NCBI GenBank assembly: GCA_022839445.1
Contig: JALHFC010000006.1
Location: forward strand, 2,029-66,028
Direction: 5' to 3'
Length of the DNA stretch: 64,000 nt
DNA from: Pelotomaculum sp.
GTDB taxonomy: Bacteria > Bacillota > Desulfotomaculia > Desulfotomaculales > Pelotomaculaceae
Positions within the stretch are counted from its first letter, which is position 1; every line of letters starts with the position of its first letter. The notes beneath the pieces are model-generated. The model was not told the origin of the DNA. It worked only from the letters and a program-made list of their open reading frames with translations, and made no database searches. Of this stretch, positions 5,836 through 16,281 are shown in pieces. The translations under genes were made by a program, and so were the position numbers.

Positions 5836-6603
5836 TTGATTGCTTTAGAACAAGTGCATAAGACATTGGGGCAGACCAAGGTCCTGGATGACTTTTCCCT
5901 GCATGCTGAAAAAAATGAAATTACCTGTATTATAGGCCCTTCGGGATGCGGCAAAACAACAACTCTGCAACTGCTGGCCGGGCTGGAACAGCCTGACGCA
6001 GGAAGGATCGTCGGGACACAAGGCATGCGCGTAAGCTATGTCTTCCAGGACCCAAGGCTATTGCTTTGGAAAACCGTGGCCCAAAACGTCGCGTTTGTTT
6101 TGCAGGACACCGTGCCCCTCGCCCGTCAGCAGGAACTGATCAGGAAGTACCTGACCATGATGGGCCTTAATGAGTACCGTGACAGTTACCCCAAGGCTTT
6201 AAGCGGGGGGATGAAGCAGAGGCTGGCCCTGTGCCGCGCTTTTGCCTACCCGCACGACCTTTTGTTGATGGACGAGCCTTTTAAGTCGCTGGATACCCCC
6301 TTGCGCTTGGGGCTGGTCTGGCAAGTGGCCAGGATGTGGCAGGAAAAATCCGGCACGATCATATTTGTCACTCATGACATTATGGATGCCCTGCTTTTGG
6401 GGCACAGGGTGATAGTCCTGTCCGCCCGCCCCGCCACCGTGCTGGACGACGTGAGGATAGACGCGCCGCCGGCGCAAAGAAACGTTCTGCAGGCGCCGCT
6501 TCCTGCCATACACGCCAGGCTACTCGACCTGCTGGAGGGGGAAAATAAAAAATATTTTCCGGACCTTTATATGACAGGGGGGAGTTCGAAAACGCCGGGA
6601 TAA
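5836..6603 (+). CDS. ABC transporter ATP-binding protein (NitT/TauT family)
   Basis: Walker A GPSGCGKTT, signature LSGGMKQRLAL and Walker B LLLMDEP. The start codon is TTG. Confidence 0.9.
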   Translation: MIALEQVHKTLGQTKVLDDFSLHAEKNEITCIIGPSGCGKTTTLQLLAGLEQPDAGRIVGTQGMRVSYVFQDPRLLLWKTVAQNVAFVLQDTVPLARQQELIRKYLTMMGLNEYRDSYPKALSGGMKQRLALCRAFAYPHDLLLMDEPFKSLDTPLRLGLVWQVARMWQEKSGTIIFVTHDIMDALLLGHRVIVLSARPATVLDDVRIDAPPAQRNVLQAPLPAIHARLLDLLEGENKKYFPDLYMTGGSSKTPG

Positions 6604-6727
6604 AACGGCGTGGAGACGGGGCTCAAAGAGTCCCACATGAAAGGAGTGGTTGCGCCACCGGCCCCGTGCCAGGCGCAGGTAACCGCGAGACCGCCACCTT
6701 ACTATTTTATTTGAAAGGAGCTTTTTC

Positions 6728-7598: not shown

Positions 7599-8057
7599 TT
7601 GATAAACGACCAGGGTGAGGGTGGAAGGGACGGCATCCTCGTTAAGGTTCGTCTTGATTTTAAAGGTGCAGGCAAGCCGGGACGATTTTTATTCGGGGGC
7701 AAGTCTACGGATAAAGTTGCGGAAGAGTCAAGAGAACAGCAGGTCGCCATATTCCGGAACGTGCCGCTGCAGGGAATACATATTGAAGATATTGATATGA
7801 GCGCCGAGGTGTACACGGTGTTTGACGACATATCCAACAATGAAATTGCCTTTGCCCCGTTGGTCCTTACCATCAAGGCCGACAGTTTGGAAAATGTGAT
7901 CAAGTTTATAACCAGGGATGACTTTAGAAAAATTGAAATCCTTGATCCGGCCCATATCACTCTAAGCCATAGCGGTATTGAAAGACTTCTCTTTAGAGTG
8001 CACGAGGAAACAAAGGAATACAGAATGAGGCTGGAAAAAAGGTACAATTTAAGGTAA
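7599..8057 (+). CDS. hypothetical protein (152 aa)
   Basis: TTG start 7 nt after RBS GGGAGGGA. No family was recognised. Confidence 0.5.
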   Translation: MINDQGEGGRDGILVKVRLDFKGAGKPGRFLFGGKSTDKVAEESREQQVAIFRNVPLQGIHIEDIDMSAEVYTVFDDISNNEIAFAPLVLTIKADSLENVIKFITRDDFRKIEILDPAHITLSHSGIERLLFRVHEETKEYRMRLEKRYNLR

Positions 8058-8253: not shown

Positions 8254-8339
8254 ATGTTTTAAGCACTGTTTTATGGAACAAATTTGTCGAACACTCCTAA
8301 TGTGGAGTGTGTTTTGATCTATAACAAGGGGGGAGCGTT

Positions 8340-8759
8340 GTGACCCTTTTTGGGAGTCGTAAAATAGCCCGTGTGGCGGTTGAAATGGCGATGACTGAGA
8401 GCAGGGAACAGGAGCGGGAATACAAGCAGCGATTTTTTAAGGAAGGAATAAGGACAGCGGCTGTTGACTACGGCGGCGATTTTATTTCTTCTGTGAATAA
8501 GATCATAGAAAGGGCTGTTGTGGCGTCCAAGCGGGAGGGAGTGATCAAAGAGATGCACGCCGACGAGGGGGCTGTGGCCGGGGCGACGCGGGAAGCGCTG
8601 TCTCAGGTTATGCCGAAGGCAATTGGTTTTAACGTCGGCGGTAAAATCGGGATCGCCCGGAAGGAAGATCACATCAGCGTGGCAATATTTTTTGGAGTAG
8701 GGTTGCTGCATTTGGACGAGGTGGCCATCGGTTTGGGCCACAGGGCAGTCCGGTCCTAA
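8340..8759 (+). CDS. HutP-family RNA-binding (antiterminator-type) protein
   Basis: 139 aa. By-eye alignment with B. subtilis HutP over the full length: MTL..R.I.R, ASKREGVI vs ASKKSGVI, ATREAL vs ATMEAL, ISVAIFFGVG vs IAVSLYGTIG, and a GLGH C-terminus. GTG start after GGGGGGAG. Confidence 0.75.
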   Translation: MTLFGSRKIARVAVEMAMTESREQEREYKQRFFKEGIRTAAVDYGGDFISSVNKIIERAVVASKREGVIKEMHADEGAVAGATREALSQVMPKAIGFNVGGKIGIARKEDHISVAIFFGVGLLHLDEVAIGLGHRAVRS

Positions 8760-8787: not shown

Positions 8788-9162
8788 ATGGGCGCAATAT
8801 TATTAAGAGGCGTTCGCGGCGCTATTACGGTAGAACGGAATGACGCGGGGGAAATATTTTCAGCTACCAGGGAACTTTTAAAGGCCATGATAAAGGAAAA
8901 TGACATTGATCCCGAAGATATCGCAAGCGTTATTTTTACAGTTACACCGGATTTGAACGCAGGGTTTCCGGCGACAGCGGCGCGGGAGATGGGTTGGCGG
9001 TATGTCCCGCTCCTTGGCGCAACAGAAATAAATGTTCCCGGAATGCCCGGCAAATGTATCAGGGCGCTGGTCCATGTAAATACAGGTAAGTCTCAAAGAG
9101 AATTGAAGCATATATACTTGAGGGACGCTGCCCGGCTGAGGGTGGACCTGGTGCCTCAATAG
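8788..9162 (+). CDS. aroH: chorismate mutase, AroH class
   Basis: LRGVRGAITVERN...VIFTVTPDLNAGFPA...YVPLLGATEINVPG...CIRALVHVN matches monofunctional AroH. ATG 8788 is preferred over the upstream TTG 8770. Confidence 0.9.
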   Translation: MGAILLRGVRGAITVERNDAGEIFSATRELLKAMIKENDIDPEDIASVIFTVTPDLNAGFPATAAREMGWRYVPLLGATEINVPGMPGKCIRALVHVNTGKSQRELKHIYLRDAARLRVDLVPQ

Positions 9163-9278: not shown

Positions 9279-9758
9279 GTGGAGTTTTTGAACTGGCTAC
9301 AAACAAATGATCAGGGTTTATTTTTATTTATTATAGCGTTTGCCAACGCTATATTTTTACCGTTTGGCCCGGAGATAGCATTTATTCCTATTTTGATGGT
9401 CAGCCATAATAAACTGATACCCTATGCTTCTTATTGTGTGATCGGGAGTGTCCTGGGGCTGGCGGTTACATACACTATGTCCTACTACTACAGTAAAACC
9501 CTGGTTGGTAGATATGTCTCGCCTCAAAAGCTCGAAAAAGGGGAGCGGGTCTTTACCAGGTATGGCCCCTGGGCTTTAGTAATCGCTTCCATGTTCCCGG
9601 TCTTTCCTTATCGAATTCTTGTGATTATCTCCGGTTGCTTAAAGCAAAGGCCGGCAAAAGTTTTCACCTTTTTGACCCTTGGCAAGGGCTTGAGGTTTTT
9701 TGGCTATGGATTTTTAATAGCTAAACTGGGGGAGTCGGTTGTTAAATATTTAATGTAG
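9279..9758 (+). CDS. DedA/YqaA-like (SNARE-associated) small membrane protein
   Basis: 159 aa with 4 TM segments and a pattern typical of the YqaA/DedA family. GTG start. Confidence 0.6.
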   Translation: MEFLNWLQTNDQGLFLFIIAFANAIFLPFGPEIAFIPILMVSHNKLIPYASYCVIGSVLGLAVTYTMSYYYSKTLVGRYVSPQKLEKGERVFTRYGPWALVIASMFPVFPYRILVIISGCLKQRPAKVFTFLTLGKGLRFFGYGFLIAKLGESVVKYLM

Positions 9759-9788
9759 TTGGATGAGCCGTCATGTGGTAAAAAGTAC

Positions 9789-9817
9789 TTGACGGTTGTT
9801 TGTGTAACGTGTAAAAT
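9789..9817 (+). promoter_or_regulatory. sigma-A-type promoter of the trp operon
   Basis: TTGACG (9789-9794), a 17-nt spacer, then TAAAAT (9812-9817). Confidence 0.55.
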
Positions 9818-9819
9818 AA

Positions 9820-9873
9820 AAGTTGAGCAGAGATTAGTTTAGAAGAGCATAAGTTGAGCTTAGCTGAGATGAG
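9820..9873 (+). promoter_or_regulatory. array of 11 phased NAG triplets (TRAP-type RNA-binding-protein site) in the trpE leader
   Basis: Triplet starts: 9820 AAG, 9825 GAG, 9830 GAG, 9835 TAG, 9840 TAG, 9845 GAG, 9851 AAG, 9856 GAG, 9861 TAG, 9866 GAG, 9871 GAG. Spacers are 2,2,2,2,2,3,2,2,2,2 nt. Confidence 0.8.
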
Positions 9874-9900
9874 TTTGCGTATTTTCATTTGGGAAAATGT

Positions 9901-9936
9901 GCCGGCGCTCATTTGAGCGCCGGTTTATTTATTTTT
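9901..9936 (+). terminator. intrinsic terminator (attenuator) immediately upstream of trpE
   Basis: A 9-bp GC-rich stem CCGGCGCTC / GAGCGCCGG (9902-9910 / 9915-9923) with loop ATTT, followed by TTTATTTATTTTT. The trpE start is at 9954. Confidence 0.85.
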
Positions 9937-9953
9937 AAGGGGAGGGATTTCAG

Positions 9954-11456
9954 TTGATTAATCCAGTCAGGGAAGGGTACTTATCCTTAAGTAAAACTTG
10001 CAATTTAATACCGGTTAGTGATGAGATTAACGCCGATCTGGATACGCCGATCAGCATTTATAAAAAGGTAGCGCCGGCAGGTCCGGCCTATCTTTTGGAG
10101 AGCGTAGAGGGTGGTGAAATTTTAGCCCGCTATTCATTTATCGGGTTTGACCCTTTCCTAACTTTTATTTCGCAGGGGGAAGAGTCGCATGTTTACGGCC
10201 CCGGCTCGAAAAAAATAATCCCGGGCCCTCCCTTAGAAGCTTTGGAGCGTGTTATTGGCAGTTATAGTGTTTACCAAGCGCCCGGTTTACCCCGTTTTTT
10301 CGGGGGCGCTGTAGGCTATATCAGCTATGATGTGGCGCGTTTTACCGGGAAAATTGAGACGCCGCAAGGTGGTATGCCCGGCTTGCCTGGCTGTTACTTT
10401 ATTTTTGCCGGTACGGTCCTTATTTTTGACCACGTCAAGCGGGCTTTAACCGTAGTTGTAAACAGCCTGCCCGGGGCAGATCCAGGGGGCGCGTATGATC
10501 TAGCCAGGGAGCGGATAAAAAAGATAGTTTGGGCGATTCAAAGTAATGCGCCAATAAAAAAAGATACCGTCCGCAGTCAAGCTTGCGCTTATGGGAAGTT
10601 GGAAGCGAACATTGACAGTGGTGAATTTATGGCGAAAGTGGCGCAGGCCAAGGAATACATAAAATCCGGCGATGTCCTGCAGGTAGTCTTGTCCCGGCGC
10701 CTGCGCGCGCCCTTTTGCGGTGATCCGTTCGATGTATACAGGAAATTGCGGGCGTTAAACCCGTCCCCTTATCTTTATTACCTCGATTTTGACGAGGTCA
10801 AGGTGGCGGGCTCTTCCCCGGAAATGCTGGTGAGGGTAGAGGGAACTACAGTAAGTACCTGTCCGATTGCGGGCACCCGGCCCCGGGGAGCAGACCGGGA
10901 GTCCGACCTGGCCCTGGCCAAGGAATTGCTTGGAGACGCCAAAGAAAGATCCGAGCACCTGATGCTGGTAGACCTGGGCCAAGATGATCTGGAAAAAGTA
11001 TGTGAAACCGGTAGCGTCGGGCTGGATCGGTTCATGGAAGTGGAAAAATTTTCCCATGTTATGCACCTGGTTTCAAGCTTGTGCGGCAACCTGGCGCCAG
11101 GCAAAAACTGTTTTGACGCTTTAAAAGCATGTTTCCCCGCCGGTACCGTGACAGGCGCTCCAAGGGCGCGTGCAATGGAGATCATCAACGAGCTGGAGCC
11201 TGACGGGCGGGGTATTTATGCCGGGGCAACCGGGTACATCGGGTTTTCGGGGAATATGGACTTTGCCATAACCATCAGGACCATAGTGATGCAGGAGGGG
11301 TACGCGTATGTGCAGGCCGGGGCCGGCATCGTGGCCGGTTCCAACCCTAAAGCGGAGTACGAGGAAACGGTAAACAAGGCTCGCGCGCTTTTAACTACTC
11401 TTTGGGAAGTTGAAGCAGATTGGGTAAGCGCCTATGGGCAGTGTGAGGGGCTTTAG
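9954..11456 (+). CDS. trpE: anthranilate synthase component I
   Basis: 500 aa with chorismate-binding enzyme motifs (GTRPRG, GAPRARAMEII, GIYAGATGY). TTG start after AAGGGGAGGG. Confidence 0.95.
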   Translation: MINPVREGYLSLSKTCNLIPVSDEINADLDTPISIYKKVAPAGPAYLLESVEGGEILARYSFIGFDPFLTFISQGEESHVYGPGSKKIIPGPPLEALERVIGSYSVYQAPGLPRFFGGAVGYISYDVARFTGKIETPQGGMPGLPGCYFIFAGTVLIFDHVKRALTVVVNSLPGADPGGAYDLARERIKKIVWAIQSNAPIKKDTVRSQACAYGKLEANIDSGEFMAKVAQAKEYIKSGDVLQVVLSRRLRAPFCGDPFDVYRKLRALNPSPYLYYLDFDEVKVAGSSPEMLVRVEGTTVSTCPIAGTRPRGADRESDLALAKELLGDAKERSEHLMLVDLGQDDLEKVCETGSVGLDRFMEVEKFSHVMHLVSSLCGNLAPGKNCFDALKACFPAGTVTGAPRARAMEIINELEPDGRGIYAGATGYIGFSGNMDFAITIRTIVMQEGYAYVQAGAGIVAGSNPKAEYEETVNKARALLTTLWEVEADWVSAYGQCEGL

Positions 11457-11516
11457 AAAAGTCAGGCGGGTGTTAAGTTTTTACTAGCTTAGAGCTTAGA
11501 AAAGGAGAGTTCTGAA

Positions 11517-12551
11517 ATGAAAGAGGCTATATTAAGAGTCGTTTCGGGGAGGCATTTAACTGAAATGAAGGCAATGTCTGTAATGGAGCAAATCATGGAG
11601 GGGCGGGCCAGTTCCGCTCAGATTGCCTCCCTGCTGACCGCCATGCGGCTAAAAGGCGAAACTGCCGAAGAAATTACCGGTTTTGCCAGGGTGATGAGAC
11701 GGATGTCGACGCCAATCAAGTCGTCTTACCCCATTCTAGTGGATACTTGTGGCACAGGGGGAGACGGCGCCGGGACCTTTAATATTTCTACAACTGCGGC
11801 TTTTGTAGTGGCCGGGGCCGGGGCGCCTGTAGCCAAGCACGGCAACCGGTCGGTGTCCAGCCGTAGCGGCAGCGCCGATGTTCTGGAGGAACTGGGGGTC
11901 AGGGTTGACCTGGATCGGGACGCTATCGAGGATTGTCTGGAACAGGTGGGGATGGCCTTTCTTTTCGCGCCGATGTTACACCGCGCCACGGGGCACGCTA
12001 CGGGTCCCCGCCGCGAGATCGGGATCAGGACCGTTTTTAATATTCTAGGTCCCTTGACCAACCCGGCCGGCGCTAGGGCGCAGGTACTCGGTGTATACAG
12101 CCCTTCGCTGGCGGAATTGATCGCGCGCGTGCTGGCCAAACTGGGCGCCACCCGAGCGTTTGTGGTCCATGGCGCAGGCGGGCTGGACGAAATTTCCTTG
12201 GCCGGTCCTTCGGTCCTGTGTGAAGTAAAAGGTGGATCGGTGCGCAAGGGTATCCTGGATCCGGCCCGGTTTGGATTTCGGTACACGCCGGTTTCTACCC
12301 TGGCCGGGGGTTCCCCCGGGGAAAACGCCGCGATCACACGCCGGATTCTGGAAGGTGAAAAAGGGCCGCGCCGGGATGTCGTTGTTTTAAACGCTGCTTT
12401 GGGAGTGGTAGCTGCGGGCAAGGCCGGCGGTATAGCCGAAGGTTTGGAAATATCCGCCCGCAGTATCGATGACGGACGGGCTCTGGCTAAACTAAATGAA
12501 CTGGTTACATTTACAAAGCGATACGCGCCTGTAAAAACCGCAGCCCTATGA
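11517..12551 (+). CDS. trpD: anthranilate phosphoribosyltransferase
   Basis: 344 aa; VDTCGTGGDGAGTFNIST and KHGNRSVSS motifs. Confidence 0.95.
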   Translation: MKEAILRVVSGRHLTEMKAMSVMEQIMEGRASSAQIASLLTAMRLKGETAEEITGFARVMRRMSTPIKSSYPILVDTCGTGGDGAGTFNISTTAAFVVAGAGAPVAKHGNRSVSSRSGSADVLEELGVRVDLDRDAIEDCLEQVGMAFLFAPMLHRATGHATGPRREIGIRTVFNILGPLTNPAGARAQVLGVYSPSLAELIARVLAKLGATRAFVVHGAGGLDEISLAGPSVLCEVKGGSVRKGILDPARFGFRYTPVSTLAGGSPGENAAITRRILEGEKGPRRDVVVLNAALGVVAAGKAGGIAEGLEISARSIDDGRALAKLNELVTFTKRYAPVKTAAL

Positions 12552-13360
12552 TTTTAAATAAAATAATTGCCAACAAAAAAGTTGAGCTGCTAAAGCGTAA
12601 GGAAATGCTTCCTTTTAGCGTGCTGAAAGGAACGTTATCGGATGTTGCCCTGCCGCTACCGCTGGCGCCGGCCTTACGCCGGCCGGGCCGGGTGGCAATC
12701 ATCGCCGAAACAAAAAAAGCATCGCCTTCCAAGGGAATAATATGCGACAACTTTGATCCCGTAAAGCTGGCGAGGGAATATGAAACAGCCGGGGCGGCAG
12801 CTATATCGGTGCTCACCGAGGAAAAGTTTTTTCTCGGGCGCCCGTCTCATCTGGCAGGCGTTAAAAGGGCAGTTAAAATACCGGTTGTAAGGAAGGACTT
12901 TATCATCGATCCTTACCAGGTTTACGAGTCCCGCGCGCTGGGCGCCGACGCCATACTTTTGATCGTGGCTGCTCTTTCTTTCGAGCAACTCAAGGAATTA
13001 ATCGAACTTGCCAGGGAATTGGGCCTGTCAGGCCTGGTCGAAGTACACACGGAACCGGAATTGGAACACGCTTGCCGTGCCGGCGCGGACATTATCGGGA
13101 TTAACAACCGTGACTTGAACACTTTTAAAACTGATCTAAACAGGACATTCGAACTAATGAAGTTTATTGACAAGCAAAAATATATTGTGGTTTCCGAAAG
13201 TGGTATTAAAAGCCATACCGACTTAATCGGGCTAAAAGACTGCGGAGTGCATGCGGCGCTGGTAGGTGAAGCCCTAGTAGGAAGCGCCTTTCCGGGTGAA
13301 GCGCTAAAAAGGCTGGGCGGCTGTTCGGGCGAAAGGGGGGCTGGTTTGTGCCGGGCTTAA
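12548..13360 (+). CDS. trpC: indole-3-glycerol-phosphate synthase
   Basis: 270 aa with IIAETKKASPSKG, RKDFIIDPYQ and GINNRDL motifs. There is an ATGA overlap with trpD. Confidence 0.93.
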   Translation: MILNKIIANKKVELLKRKEMLPFSVLKGTLSDVALPLPLAPALRRPGRVAIIAETKKASPSKGIICDNFDPVKLAREYETAGAAAISVLTEEKFFLGRPSHLAGVKRAVKIPVVRKDFIIDPYQVYESRALGADAILLIVAALSFEQLKELIELARELGLSGLVEVHTEPELEHACRAGADIIGINNRDLNTFKTDLNRTFELMKFIDKQKYIVVSESGIKSHTDLIGLKDCGVHAALVGEALVGSAFPGEALKRLGGCSGERGAGLCRA

Positions 13361-13971
13361 AACAGGTAAAGGTTAAAATTTGCGGGATTATGGACTCTGT
13401 TACGGCATTGGCGGCGGTAGAGGCCGGGGCGGACGCCCTGGGGTTTGTTTTTGCTCCCGGCCCGAGGCGTGTGGAGAAAGAAAAAGTAAGATCCATCTGT
13501 GCTTTGTTGCCTCCTTTTGTTTCCCGGGTAGGTGTTTTTGTCAATGCGCCGGCTGAAGTGGTTAAAGAGACCGCTCTCTACTGTGGGTTGGATACACTGC
13601 AGCTGCACGGGGACGAAACACCGGAATACTGTTTGTCACTCCCGTACAAGATCATAAAGGCTTTCCGTGTACGGGACTCGGTTTCGCTTCAGACAATTAA
13701 GCGCTATCGCTGTGCGGCGGTTTTGCTGGATACTTACGTGCAGGAATTGCGTGGAGGTACGGGAAAAAGTTTTGATTGGAGTCTTGCCGTGGCGCCGGTG
13801 CTGTCCGTGCCGGTGATCCTAGCCGGGGGGCTCCACCCGGAAAACGTAGAGGAGGCCGTGGCTACCGCCCGTCCATATGCTGTGGATGTATCCAGCGGGG
13901 TGGAAACCGGCGGTAAAAAGGATATAGAGAAAATAAAGCTGTTTATAGAGCGGGCAAGGGGGTTATGTTAG
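13348..13971 (+). CDS. trpF: phosphoribosylanthranilate isomerase
   Basis: 207 aa; VKICGI...GADALGFVF...LQLHGDE...ILAGGL pattern. Confidence 0.9.
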
Positions 13972-15173
13972 TGGAAATATATGAGGGGGCGCCGGACAGC
14001 AAGGGGTATTACGGGCCATACGGGGGGCGTTTTGTGCCGGAGACTCTGATGCCGGGTTTAGAAGAGCTGGAAAAGGCCTACCGTGCAGCCGTGGATGATC
14101 CGGAATTCCAAAGGGAGCTGGAGCATTACCTGCAACATTATGTCGGAAGGCCTTCACCCCTGTATTTTGCCGAAGGGCTGACGGCGCATTGCGGAGGCGC
14201 CCAGGTTTACCTGAAAAGAGAAGACTTAAACCATACCGGCGCCCACAAGATAAACAATACTATCGGCCAGATTTTACTGGCCCGGCGCATGGGCAAGCGC
14301 AGGGTAATCGCCGAGACCGGCGCAGGCCAGCACGGTGTCGCGACTGCCACGGCGGCGGCCTTATTCGGGTTTGACTGTGCAGTATACATGGGAGAGGAAG
14401 ACATTCGCAGGCAGAGTCCTAACGTCTTCAGGATGCGCCTGCTGGGGGCCGAGGTCATCCCTGTCTCAACCGGCAGCAAAACGTTAAAAGACGCCATGAA
14501 TGAGGCTATCCGTGATTGGGTGACCAACGTGCGGGATACCTACTACTTGATTGGATCGGTGGCAGGGCCCCATCCCTACCCGCTTATGGTCAGGCAATTC
14601 CAATCGGTGATCGGGGTGGAGGCAAAGAGGCAAGTCCTGGAGCAGACCGGGCGTCTGCCCGGCCATATTGTTGCCTGTGTGGGTGGCGGGAGCAACGCCA
14701 TGGGTATTTTCTACCCTTTCTTGAATGAAGCTGGAGTCAATCTAGTGGGGGTTGAAGCAGCGGGGCGCGGGGTAGATACAGGGGAGCACGCCGCCACATT
14801 GGGCCTGGGCAGTCCCGGCGTGCTGCACGGCGCACTTAGTTATGTGCTGCAGAGTGAGGACGGCCAGATCCAGTGCGCTCATTCCATTTCGGCAGGGCTG
14901 GATTACCCGGGGGTTGGGCCCGAGCACTCCTATTTGAAAGACAGCGGAAGGGTGATCTATACGTCCGCTACCGATGCAGAGGCACTGGAGGCGTTTGGCC
15001 TGCTTTGCCGGACGGACGGGATCATCCCTGCCCTGGAAAGCGCCCATGCCCTGGCAGAAGCAATAAAACTGGCGCCTTCCCTGCCGCGAGAAAATATAAT
15101 ATTAGTCAACTTGTCCGGGCGGGGTGACAAGGATATCCCGGCGGTTGCAGGTGATGCGGGGGTGTATGTATGA
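13965..15173 (+). CDS. trpB: tryptophan synthase beta chain
   Basis: 402 aa; [14 protein letters not shown]-lysine motif and GGGSNAMG. Confidence 0.95.
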
Positions 15174-15988
15174 GTAAGATCACGGAATGTCTGGAAAATA
15201 TGCGCCGTACGGGTAAGAAAGGCCTGATCCCGTTTATCACCGCCGGTGACCCTGATTTGGCGGGCACAGTGGAGATCGCGAAACGGTTGGCCTTCGCCGG
15301 CGCCGATCTCGTTGAACTGGGTATACCTTTTTCCGATCCGGTGGCGGACGGTCCGGTAATCCAGCAGGCGTCCGGACGGGCGCTGAAATCAGGGACCACG
15401 CTACAGGGGATCCTTGAAGCAGTGAGGGAAATAAAAAAAGACTGCAGTATGCCGCTGATCTTGATGGGTTACTATAATCAGATTTACAAATATGGGTTGC
15501 GCCGGTTTACTTGTGACGCTGCAAAGGCCGGGGTCAGCGGCCTCATTGTGCCGGACCTGCCCCACGAAGAGTGCGGGCCGTTGCGTGAGGAAGCCATTTT
15601 GGCGGGGCTTGATCTCATTCCTTTAGTAGCGCCTACCACTACCAATCCAAGGTTGGAGAAAATCACCGCCGGCGCGTGCGGTTTTATATATTGCGTTTCC
15701 GTAACCGGTGTCACCGGGACCAGGGAGCAAATGGGTACGGACCTGGAAAACTTTACGGGCCGGGTGCGCCGCTACACTTCCCTGCCCCTGGCCGTTGGTT
15801 TCGGCATTGCCGGGCCGGAGCAAGCGGCGCAAACAGCGAAGCTTTGTGACGCCGTGGTGGTGGGAAGCGCTATTGTTAAAATCATTGCTGAGTATAATGA
15901 TGTTTCGTCTGCCGGGCCGGCGGTGGAGAAACTCGTCTCTCAAATTAGGGGGACGCTGGATGGTTTGCAATATACAAGGCCAAAATAA
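15170..15988 (+). CDS. trpA: tryptophan synthase alpha chain
   Basis: 272 aa; [17 protein letters not shown] motif. There is an ATGA overlap with trpB. Confidence 0.95.
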
Positions 15989-16063: not shown

Positions 16064-16179
16064 AAAATATACTTGTAGGATGGTTTTTTGGTTGGGAAGG
16101 CAGCGCCTGCGGGCGCACAGGAGAAGAACGGCAGGATGGCAAGGGAGGCGATGAGATTGTTTGCTTATGGTCCGACTTG

Positions 16180-16210
16180 AGTACTCCTCCGGGAGTGCTT
16201 TTTTGTTTTT
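16180..16210 (+). terminator. intrinsic terminator inside the aroF leader (attenuator of unknown class)
   Basis: An 8-bp stem 16180-16187 / 16192-16199 (AGTACTCC/GGAGTGCT, one G.U) with loop TCCG, then TTTTTGTTTTT. It lies 72 nt upstream of the aroF ATG. Confidence 0.7.
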
Positions 16211-16281
16211 AGTTTTGGAAATGATATTTAAGGTAAGGTTTTTTAAGGCAGGGTTTTTCCGATATGTAAGGGGGTTTAAAA

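Follow-up and report, generated by a model that had tools for sequence, protein, structure and literature searches.

Which protein, if any, reads the leader RNA of the tryptophan operon in Pelotomaculum sp.? We analysed a stretch of 64,000 nucleotides from contig JALHFC010000006.1 (assembly GCA_022839445.1), referred to below as the window, in which the trpEDCFBA operon (9954-15988, + strand, without trpG) is preceded by a run of phased NAG triplets and an intrinsic terminator. This arrangement recalls the trp leader of Bacillus subtilis and its regulator TRAP (MtrB, PF02081). Attenuation by TRAP is a textbook mechanism, which has been studied almost only in Bacillus and Geobacillus. Our results indicate that the Pelotomaculum leader is very probably a protein-operated transcription attenuator of trpEDCFBA that is built like the B. 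subtilis trp leader. We regard it as a further case of the known TRAP-type attenuator, outside the Bacillales in which this has been studied, and to the full reading, in which the attenuator is read by a TRAP orthologue encoded outside the window, we assign a probability of roughly 0.45.

The leader comprises the following elements:

9789-9817, + strand: sigma-70-type promoter (TTGACG at 9789-9794, 17-nt spacer, TAAAAT at 9812-9817)
9820-9873, + strand: array of 11 NAG triplets (AAG GAG GAG UAG UAG GAG AAG GAG UAG GAG GAG)
9867-9914, + strand: predicted antiterminator, in which the last two triplets, AGAUGAGU at 9867-9874, pair with GCUCAUUU at 9907-9914
9901-9936, + strand: intrinsic terminator acting as the attenuator (stem 9901-9924, loop AUUU, U-rich tract 9924-9936)
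9938-9956, + strand: ribosome-binding site AAGGGGAGG (9938-9946) and TTG start codon of trpE (9954-9956)

An earlier note on this DNA had placed the promoter, triplets, terminator and ribosome-binding site from the letters alone, and all of these coordinates were confirmed in the sequence, with the terminator stem now computed as 9901-9924. Its caution about the transcription start also stands: from the -10 box, transcription is predicted to start at about 9824-9825, so that the AAG at 9820 is probably not transcribed from the operon's own promoter and 10 triplets remain. The promoter matches the consensus at 10 of 12 positions, and promoters of the form TTGAC(A/G)...TAxAxT likewise precede the arrays of related leaders. 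The triplets start at 9820, 9825, 9830, 9835, 9840, 9845, 9851, 9856, 9861, 9866 and 9871 and are separated by nine spacers of 2 nt and one of 3 nt (9848-9850). With six GAG, three UAG and two AAG, the array fits the 9-11 (G/U)AG triplets with 2-3-nt spacers that define a TRAP site. It is the sole chain of at least six NAG units on either strand of the window, and the longest chain in 200 first-order Markov simulations of 64 kb each had 4-7 units. Further arrays of at least six triplets, which might have pointed to other members of the same regulon, were not found in the window, nor was a second, shorter array of the type that lies at a ribosome-binding site or start codon. The terminator stem has 10 pairs, eight of them G-C, and is followed by TTTATTTATTTTT; the ribosome-binding site of trpE is rated strong. 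The leader as a whole folds 3.95 standard deviations better than its own shuffles. The array is presumed to be the binding platform for a multimeric RNA-binding protein.

To see how far this design is shared, we drew on 80 related loci, which came from a scan for a HutP-like protein over one genome per species and were thus fetched by the presence of the HutP-like gene. Represented among them are Pelotomaculum, Desulforamulus, Desulfofundulus, Desulfoscipio, Thermincola, Syntrophomonadaceae, Desulfitispora and further groups; together the loci span approximately 0.83 Mb, only about 0.3% per genome. All 16 related trpE leaders that we found have a phased array, with 6-12 triplets in each. Desulfofundulus thermosubterraneus DSM 16057, D. 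australicus DSM 11792, Desulfitispora alkaliphila DSM 22410 and Pelotomaculum terephthalicicum JT are among the bearers of such leaders. Conservation of the triplet phase in orthologous leaders had been set beforehand as a check on the attenuator reading, and the phase was kept in 16 of 16. Taken over 17 arrays, that is these 16 and the one in the window, the triplets are GAG in 118 cases, UAG in 24, AAG in 12 and CAG in six, and the spacers are 2 nt long in 130 cases (91%) and 3 nt in 13. In these 17 leaders, which belong to several classes, the spacers drift in sequence but the triplets keep their identity and their 5-nt phase. All arrays share the conserved end GAGCUGAGAUGAG. The terminator follows 20-45 nt past the array end with the core (a/c)CCGGUGCUCAUUUGAGUGCCGG and a run of U residues; its stem is paired in 96.5% of cells over the 17 leaders, compared with 31-44% in slid controls, and three of its pairs carry compensatory changes in 16 cells. 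In one locus (L057, at about 1215-1260), a long UAG run with alternating 1- and 2-nt spacers (UUAGUUUAGUUAGUUUAG...) lies ahead of the main array with its 5-nt phase.

Folding of the leader pointed to a second structure that competes with the terminator. Each leader was cut at the terminator loop, before the 3' arm, as RNA polymerase first meets the RNA. In nearly all of the 17 cut leaders, the pairing of AGAUGAG (the last two triplets) with CUCAUUU was recovered, usually together with an inner helix between the spacer and the CCGG arm, which in the window corresponds to a hairpin of 9877-9886 with 9893-9902. The predicted antiterminator overlaps the 5' arm and the loop of the terminator, so that the pairings 9867-9874:9907-9914 and the stem 9901-9924 are predicted to be mutually exclusive, as a folding check proposed in the earlier note had asked. 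The base helix of the antiterminator is paired in 91.6% of cases across the 17 sequences and is mostly invariant. As such it agrees with the model, and the overlap of the array with an antiterminator that excludes the terminator is a prediction from these folds; due to its near-invariance, the helix receives little support from covariation, and this counts against the reading to that extent.

In the mechanism that we propose, transcription would begin near 9824 and approximately 10 NAG triplets at 5-nt phase would emerge first. If the array stays unbound, AGAUGAG (9867-9873) would pair with CUCAUUU (9908-9914) and, together with the inner hairpin, form the antiterminator, which would take up the 5' arm and the loop of the terminator and let RNA polymerase read into trpE. 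If a tryptophan-activated multimeric protein occupies the triplets, no antiterminator would form, and the 9901-9924 hairpin and the U tract would stop transcription. Since the last triplets lie within the antiterminator, a protein bound to the array would block it and cause termination, which is the scheme of TRAP in B. subtilis. The anatomy, the conservation and the competing pairings were seen in the sequences and their predicted folds; the binding protein and its ligand we infer.

Shorter second NAG arrays were observed in some of the other loci. In L090 (10420-10447), L066 (at about 6600-6640, before trpE) and L106 (6713-6751), they extend over the first gene's start codon or ribosome-binding site, and in L071 (9090-9127) such an array lies inside the operon, ahead of trpD. 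By analogy with B. subtilis trpE and pabA, second arrays would add a layer of translational control.

The likeness to the B. subtilis trpEDCFBA system extends beyond the approximately 11 (G/U)AG triplets and their 2-3-nt spacers. In both cases an antiterminator and an intrinsic terminator compete, with the array reaching into the 5' strand of the former, and in both the array lies between the chorismate mutase gene aroH and trpE in an aromatic supraoperon, the operon here having no trpG. In contrast to B. subtilis, this lineage has a terminator core (CUCAUUUGAG) and an array end (GAGCUGAGAUGAG) of its own, and the Rfam model of the Bacillus tryptophan operon leader (RF02370) scores only 16 bits on this leader against a gathering score of 100. 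This failure is uninformative, as six leaders of other classes that lie next to a real mtrB gene also fail the model.

Could the leader work without any protein that reads the array, as a T-box, another riboswitch, a leader peptide with Trp codons, or a terminator that merely ends the upstream unit? An open reading frame (ORF) of 15 codons (MSLRIFIWENVPALI) runs from the last triplets to the terminator loop (9870-9917, + strand) and contains a Trp codon, and the upstream gene (9279-9758) ends just 30 nt before the promoter, which would be in line with one or the other of these possibilities. This ORF is the sole one in the leader, and its Trp codon is a single UGG without tandem Trp codons; in related leaders it lacks a Trp codon (L059, L063) or an AUG (L026). 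As it is not conserved, the ORF is probably incidental, and leader-peptide attenuation was rejected. A T-box was rejected as well: no Rfam family, the T-box included, reached the gathering score in the window, and the T-box was not among the six sub-threshold matches on 9700-10000. The absence of both a T-box and a Trp-rich leader peptide had already been read from the letters. No Rfam family reached threshold on the leader even in permissive mode, the best match having 18 bits against a cut-off of 58.7. Moreover, the terminator sits downstream of a dedicated promoter, and 17 leaders from several classes keep the triplets in phase despite drift in their spacers. We therefore consider control without an array-binding protein highly improbable.

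If a protein reads the array, TRAP is the obvious candidate, and the strongest argument for it comes from leaders that lie next to a real mtrB gene. As a comparison set we used 85 TRAP loci (696 kb). TRAP is a compact and highly conserved family (127 clusters at 50% identity), with named members outside the Bacilli from Halanaerobiales, Acetohalobium, Sporohalobacter, Candidatus Frackibacter, Limnochordales and Clostridia metagenome-assembled genomes. In at least six loci, namely Acetohalobium arabaticum (CP002105, L090) and the metagenome loci L106, L111, L140, L151 and L165, mtrB directly precedes a NAG array and trp genes. The arrays of these mtrB-adjacent leaders consist of 30 GAG, 18 UAG, six AAG and three CAG triplets, have 92% 2-nt spacers and are 7-12 units long. 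The base ahead of the triplet is a U in roughly two of three cases, both there and in the 17 arrays on the HutP side. Thus, in triplet usage, spacer length, preceding base and length, the arrays studied here are indistinguishable from the mtrB-adjacent ones, and as they match, the leader RNA belongs to the class of TRAP sites. The order of regulator gene, array, terminator and biosynthetic genes is also the same, and Acetohalobium shares the array end GAGAUGAG and the terminator core GCUCAAUUGAGC with the leaders here. The mtrB-adjacent terminators otherwise differ in sequence from that of the window, and the gene that precedes the array is mtrB there, whereas here it is a gene of the HutP family, followed by aroH. 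TrpE identity does not separate the two operon types (46-51% for TRAP-adjacent and 41-63% for HutP-adjacent operons). When all ORFs of the TRAP loci were compared with those of the HutP-like loci, no gene pair exceeded 69% identity, and hence no shared organism can be inferred between the two sets.

The mtrB gene itself was not detected in the window. Searches with tblastn gave nothing above noise, and a TRAP profile hidden Markov model run over the six-frame translation of the window gave nothing either, while positive controls scored 119 bits. The absence of mtrB from the 64 kb, which the earlier note had reported, is thereby upheld for the window. It does not extend to the genome: outside Bacillus, mtrB has its home after dnaE and before pfkA or accD (seen in L087, L090, L091 and L172-L181), usually far from trp, and because mtrB is often unlinked to trp, its absence from a window centred on trp is expected. 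No dnaE-pfkA region is present in the window. The further argument that the spot next to spoIVA, where mtrB lies in B. subtilis, is non-coding here does not hold, since spoIVA is followed by hom, thrB and lysC, without folE/mtrB synteny. Several other observations nevertheless weigh against TRAP as the reader. Unlike in B. subtilis, TRAP was found neither in the window nor in the 80 related loci, which cover only about 0.3% of each genome. Among the roughly 220 best-listed TRAP clusters, none is named from Desulfotomaculia, Pelotomaculum, Thermincola or Syntrophomonadaceae, whereas more than 20 species of these lineages have a named HutP-like protein. In a related metagenome-assembled genome (L073), folE is not followed by mtrB. 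Apart from these observations, nothing in the literature searched links TRAP to Desulfotomaculia. The presence of TRAP in leader-bearing genomes is an assumption of the preferred reading and not a result. The original proposal of a TRAP-type attenuator consequently stands for the architecture, that is the identity, phase and number of the triplets and the overlap with the antiterminator, and is tentative for the protein that reads it.

Some further features of the TRAP loci were noted. Acetohalobium has its entire aroF-trpEDCFBA operon inserted directly downstream of mtrB. Loci of the L172 group carry a conserved 61-aa ORF without a Pfam match 15 nt past mtrB. In L111, an ORF between the NAG array and trpE (at about 10500-10840) resembles an AroQ-type chorismate mutase by eye; if it is correctly identified, a chorismate mutase accompanies the trp leader in TRAP lineages and HutP-like lineages alike.

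The gene neighbourhood of the leader brings in another candidate. The account of possible regulators in the earlier note was incomplete, as it had overlooked a full-length gene of the HutP family on the same strand, which we name HutPL. The genes around the leader, with the trp genes assigned by the Pfam families of the called genes, in agreement with the operon content proposed before, are:

7599-8057, + strand: conserved gene for a protein of 152 aa (family of about 135-150 aa), adjoining HutPL upstream
8340-8759, + strand: HutPL, HutP-family gene (PF09021, 139 aa), co-oriented with the aro and trp genes
8788-9162, + strand: aroH, type I chorismate mutase, starting 29 nt after HutPL and probably co-transcribed with it
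9279-9758, + strand: gene for a VTT/DedA-type membrane protein, ending 30 nt before the promoter of the trp leader
9954-11456, + strand: trpE
11517-12551, + strand: trpD
12548-13360, + strand: trpC
13348-13971, + strand: trpF
13965-15173, + strand: trpB
15170-15988, + strand: trpA
16076-16212, + strand: leader of aroF-tyrA-aroA, with GUAG/GGCAG-type units in two clusters, then GGGAGGCGAU, then the terminator GAGUACUCCUCCGGGAGUGCUUUUUU

Downstream of the trp operon follow aroF, tyrA, aroA and cmk, and, much further on, spoIVA. HutPL lies 1.2 kb upstream, with 1.0 kb between it and the promoter. An identical protein is annotated at NCBI from a metagenome-assembled genome of the Desulfotomaculaceae. 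In the 80 loci, the order of rluB, the 152-aa gene, the HutP-like gene and aroH is nearly universal; aroH directly follows the HutP-like gene in 68 of them, and the block continues with the trp operon (16 loci) or with aroF-tyrA-aroA. The HutP-like gene adjoins aro or trp genes in all 80 species loci.

One might therefore speculate that HutPL, activated by an aromatic amino acid, occupies the triplets and blocks the antiterminator, so that it would have taken over the role of TRAP in Desulfotomaculia, Thermincola and allied classes, with a sign opposite to that of HutP, as it would terminate transcription rather than prevent termination. Apart from TRAP, HutP is the one protein family with a known ability to read NAG triplets. 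HutPL matches PF09021 over its full length with 178 bits, and its AlphaFold model (predicted local distance difference test, pLDDT, of 82.8) is superimposable by Foldseek on the HutP structures 1VEA, 1WPV and 4OK9 with template modelling scores of 0.70-0.75 at 21-25% identity, which suggests a HutP fold. Against the solved HutP sequences, phmmer gave nothing and a profile search gave a marginal E value of 0.2. More than 5,800 sequence clusters belong to the subfamily, whose members from several classes share 70-90% identity. A HutP-like gene lies on the same strand just upstream of the array leader in 17 of 17 cases, in three of them (L030, L043, L066) without aroH in between, an association that is biased, since this very gene was used to retrieve the loci. 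At the level of loci, the two regulators exclude each other: TRAP occurs in none of the 80 HutP-like loci and a HutP-like gene in none of the 85 TRAP loci (696 kb), six of which have mtrB beside an array and trpE. Finally, in an alignment that is weak (E = 0.2) and covers residues 1-92 only, His73 and His77 of B. subtilis HutP face Gly in HutPL. His73, His77 and His138 form what we take to be the site for L-histidine and the divalent metal, and the changes to Gly would fit a ligand other than histidine.

The comparison with the hut system shows likenesses as well as differences. As in the B. subtilis HutP/hut terminator (PF09021; PDB 1WMQ, 3BOY), a gene for a protein of the HutP fold lies just upstream on the same strand of a NAG-rich leader with a terminator, and the principle that binding of single-stranded NAG repeats decides between alternative hairpins would be the same, here by prediction. 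HutP, however, binds two clusters of three triplets with a 7-nt period and fully extended spacers on either side of a terminator stem and prevents termination; its spacers measure 2-4 nt according to one review. A continuous array of 10-12 units with a 5-nt period upstream of the terminator is ill-suited to such a hexamer with 3+3 sites, and binding should here cause termination. The HutP-type layout, with two clusters of three NAG, spacers of about 4 nt, a linker of 12-20 nt and a flanking terminator stem, was not found in the trp leader, and neither was a period-7 chain of at least four triplets near it. The trp triplets sit in the 5' strand of the predicted antiterminator and not in the terminator, which differs from the positive regulation of the HutP type. 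Whereas hut serves the breakdown of histidine, the pathway here is aromatic amino-acid biosynthesis, and nothing in the literature searched was found to link HutP to tryptophan or aromatic amino-acid biosynthesis. Syntrophomonadaceae metagenome-assembled genomes carry the HutP-like gene, and the trp genes of Syntrophomonas wolfei are reportedly regulated by T-boxes, which together suggest a core role of the protein other than trp control.

A better match for HutPL is found in the second leader of the supraoperon. The conserved aroF leader (in the window and in L012-L056) contains two (A/C)CGGYAG-NAY-GGYAG clusters, the sequence GGGRGGCGAUA, a small hairpin and a terminator of the form CACUCC...GGAGUG followed by U residues. 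The clusters hold 2-3 units each, in good agreement with the two-site layout of HutP and far better than the NAG array, and a GGG that follows the last unit is able to base-pair with the CUCC in the 5' arm of the terminator. In its strict form, the motif GGYAG-N3-GGYAG was counted 55 times in 42 of the 80 HutP-like loci, 49 times on the coding strand, compared with three occurrences in the 85 TRAP loci. No Rfam family matched the aroF leader at the gathering score, with only noise in permissive mode. GGYAG pairs and a CACUCC...GGAGUG hairpin also precede the HutP-like gene itself in L059 and L064, GGYAG units lie just before its start codon in L026, and in the window HutPL is preceded by a promoter and a hairpin AACACUCCUAAUGUGGAGUGUGUUUUG (8286-8318, + strand) that resembles the terminator of the aroF leader. 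These motifs suggest that the HutP-like gene is autoregulated and that the aroF leader is a likely target of HutPL; this leader may represent an attenuator of the common aromatic pathway that has not been described before. The presence of two RNA motifs in one supraoperon suggests two proteins. Taken together with the indistinguishability of the trp arrays from those beside real mtrB genes, this makes it rather unlikely, though clearly worth considering, that HutPL reads the NAG array, and we give equally little credit to the wider proposal that HutPL has replaced TRAP and reads the GGYAG clusters ahead of aroF and HutPL as well as the trp array.

A protein that is neither TRAP nor HutP-like, from a family not yet tied to NAG arrays and encoded anywhere in the genome, could also be the reader. 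That TRAP went undetected in sequence from the leader-bearing lineages (the window and the 80 loci) and that the geometry of HutP suits the array poorly would both favour such a protein, for which one candidate is the product of the 152-aa gene at 7599-8057, a gene that is syntenic in most of the 80 loci and whose protein has no Pfam, NCBIfam or PDB relative. Its single-sequence structure model has a pLDDT of 36 and is unusable, and positive evidence for a protein of this kind was not obtained. As the array equals real TRAP sites in every statistic measured, a protein of unrelated geometry becomes less likely, and we consider this possibility improbable, more so than a role of HutPL. Reading by a TRAP orthologue encoded elsewhere in the genome therefore remains the interpretation that we prefer.

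Taken together, several classes of anaerobic spore formers have retained the same RNA design. A TRAP encoded in trans would extend the known system and yield a set of natural leader variants, which would be an ordinary outcome. If TRAP is absent, a well-understood RNA-protein switch would have a second, unrelated reader, with the regulator replaced on an unchanged RNA site. Should HutPL be that reader, the HutP fold, known as a histidine-activated catabolic antiterminator, would act as an end-product-sensing attenuator of biosynthesis on a TRAP-like site, and by its block of antiterminators HutPL would shut down entire operons for aromatic amino acids. The more novel content lies in the large HutP subfamily in aro/trp supraoperons with its own conserved GGYAG leader, of which we found no description in the literature searched. 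Hundreds of anaerobe genomes have genes annotated as 'HutP family proteins', and with this, what these proteins do becomes directly testable.

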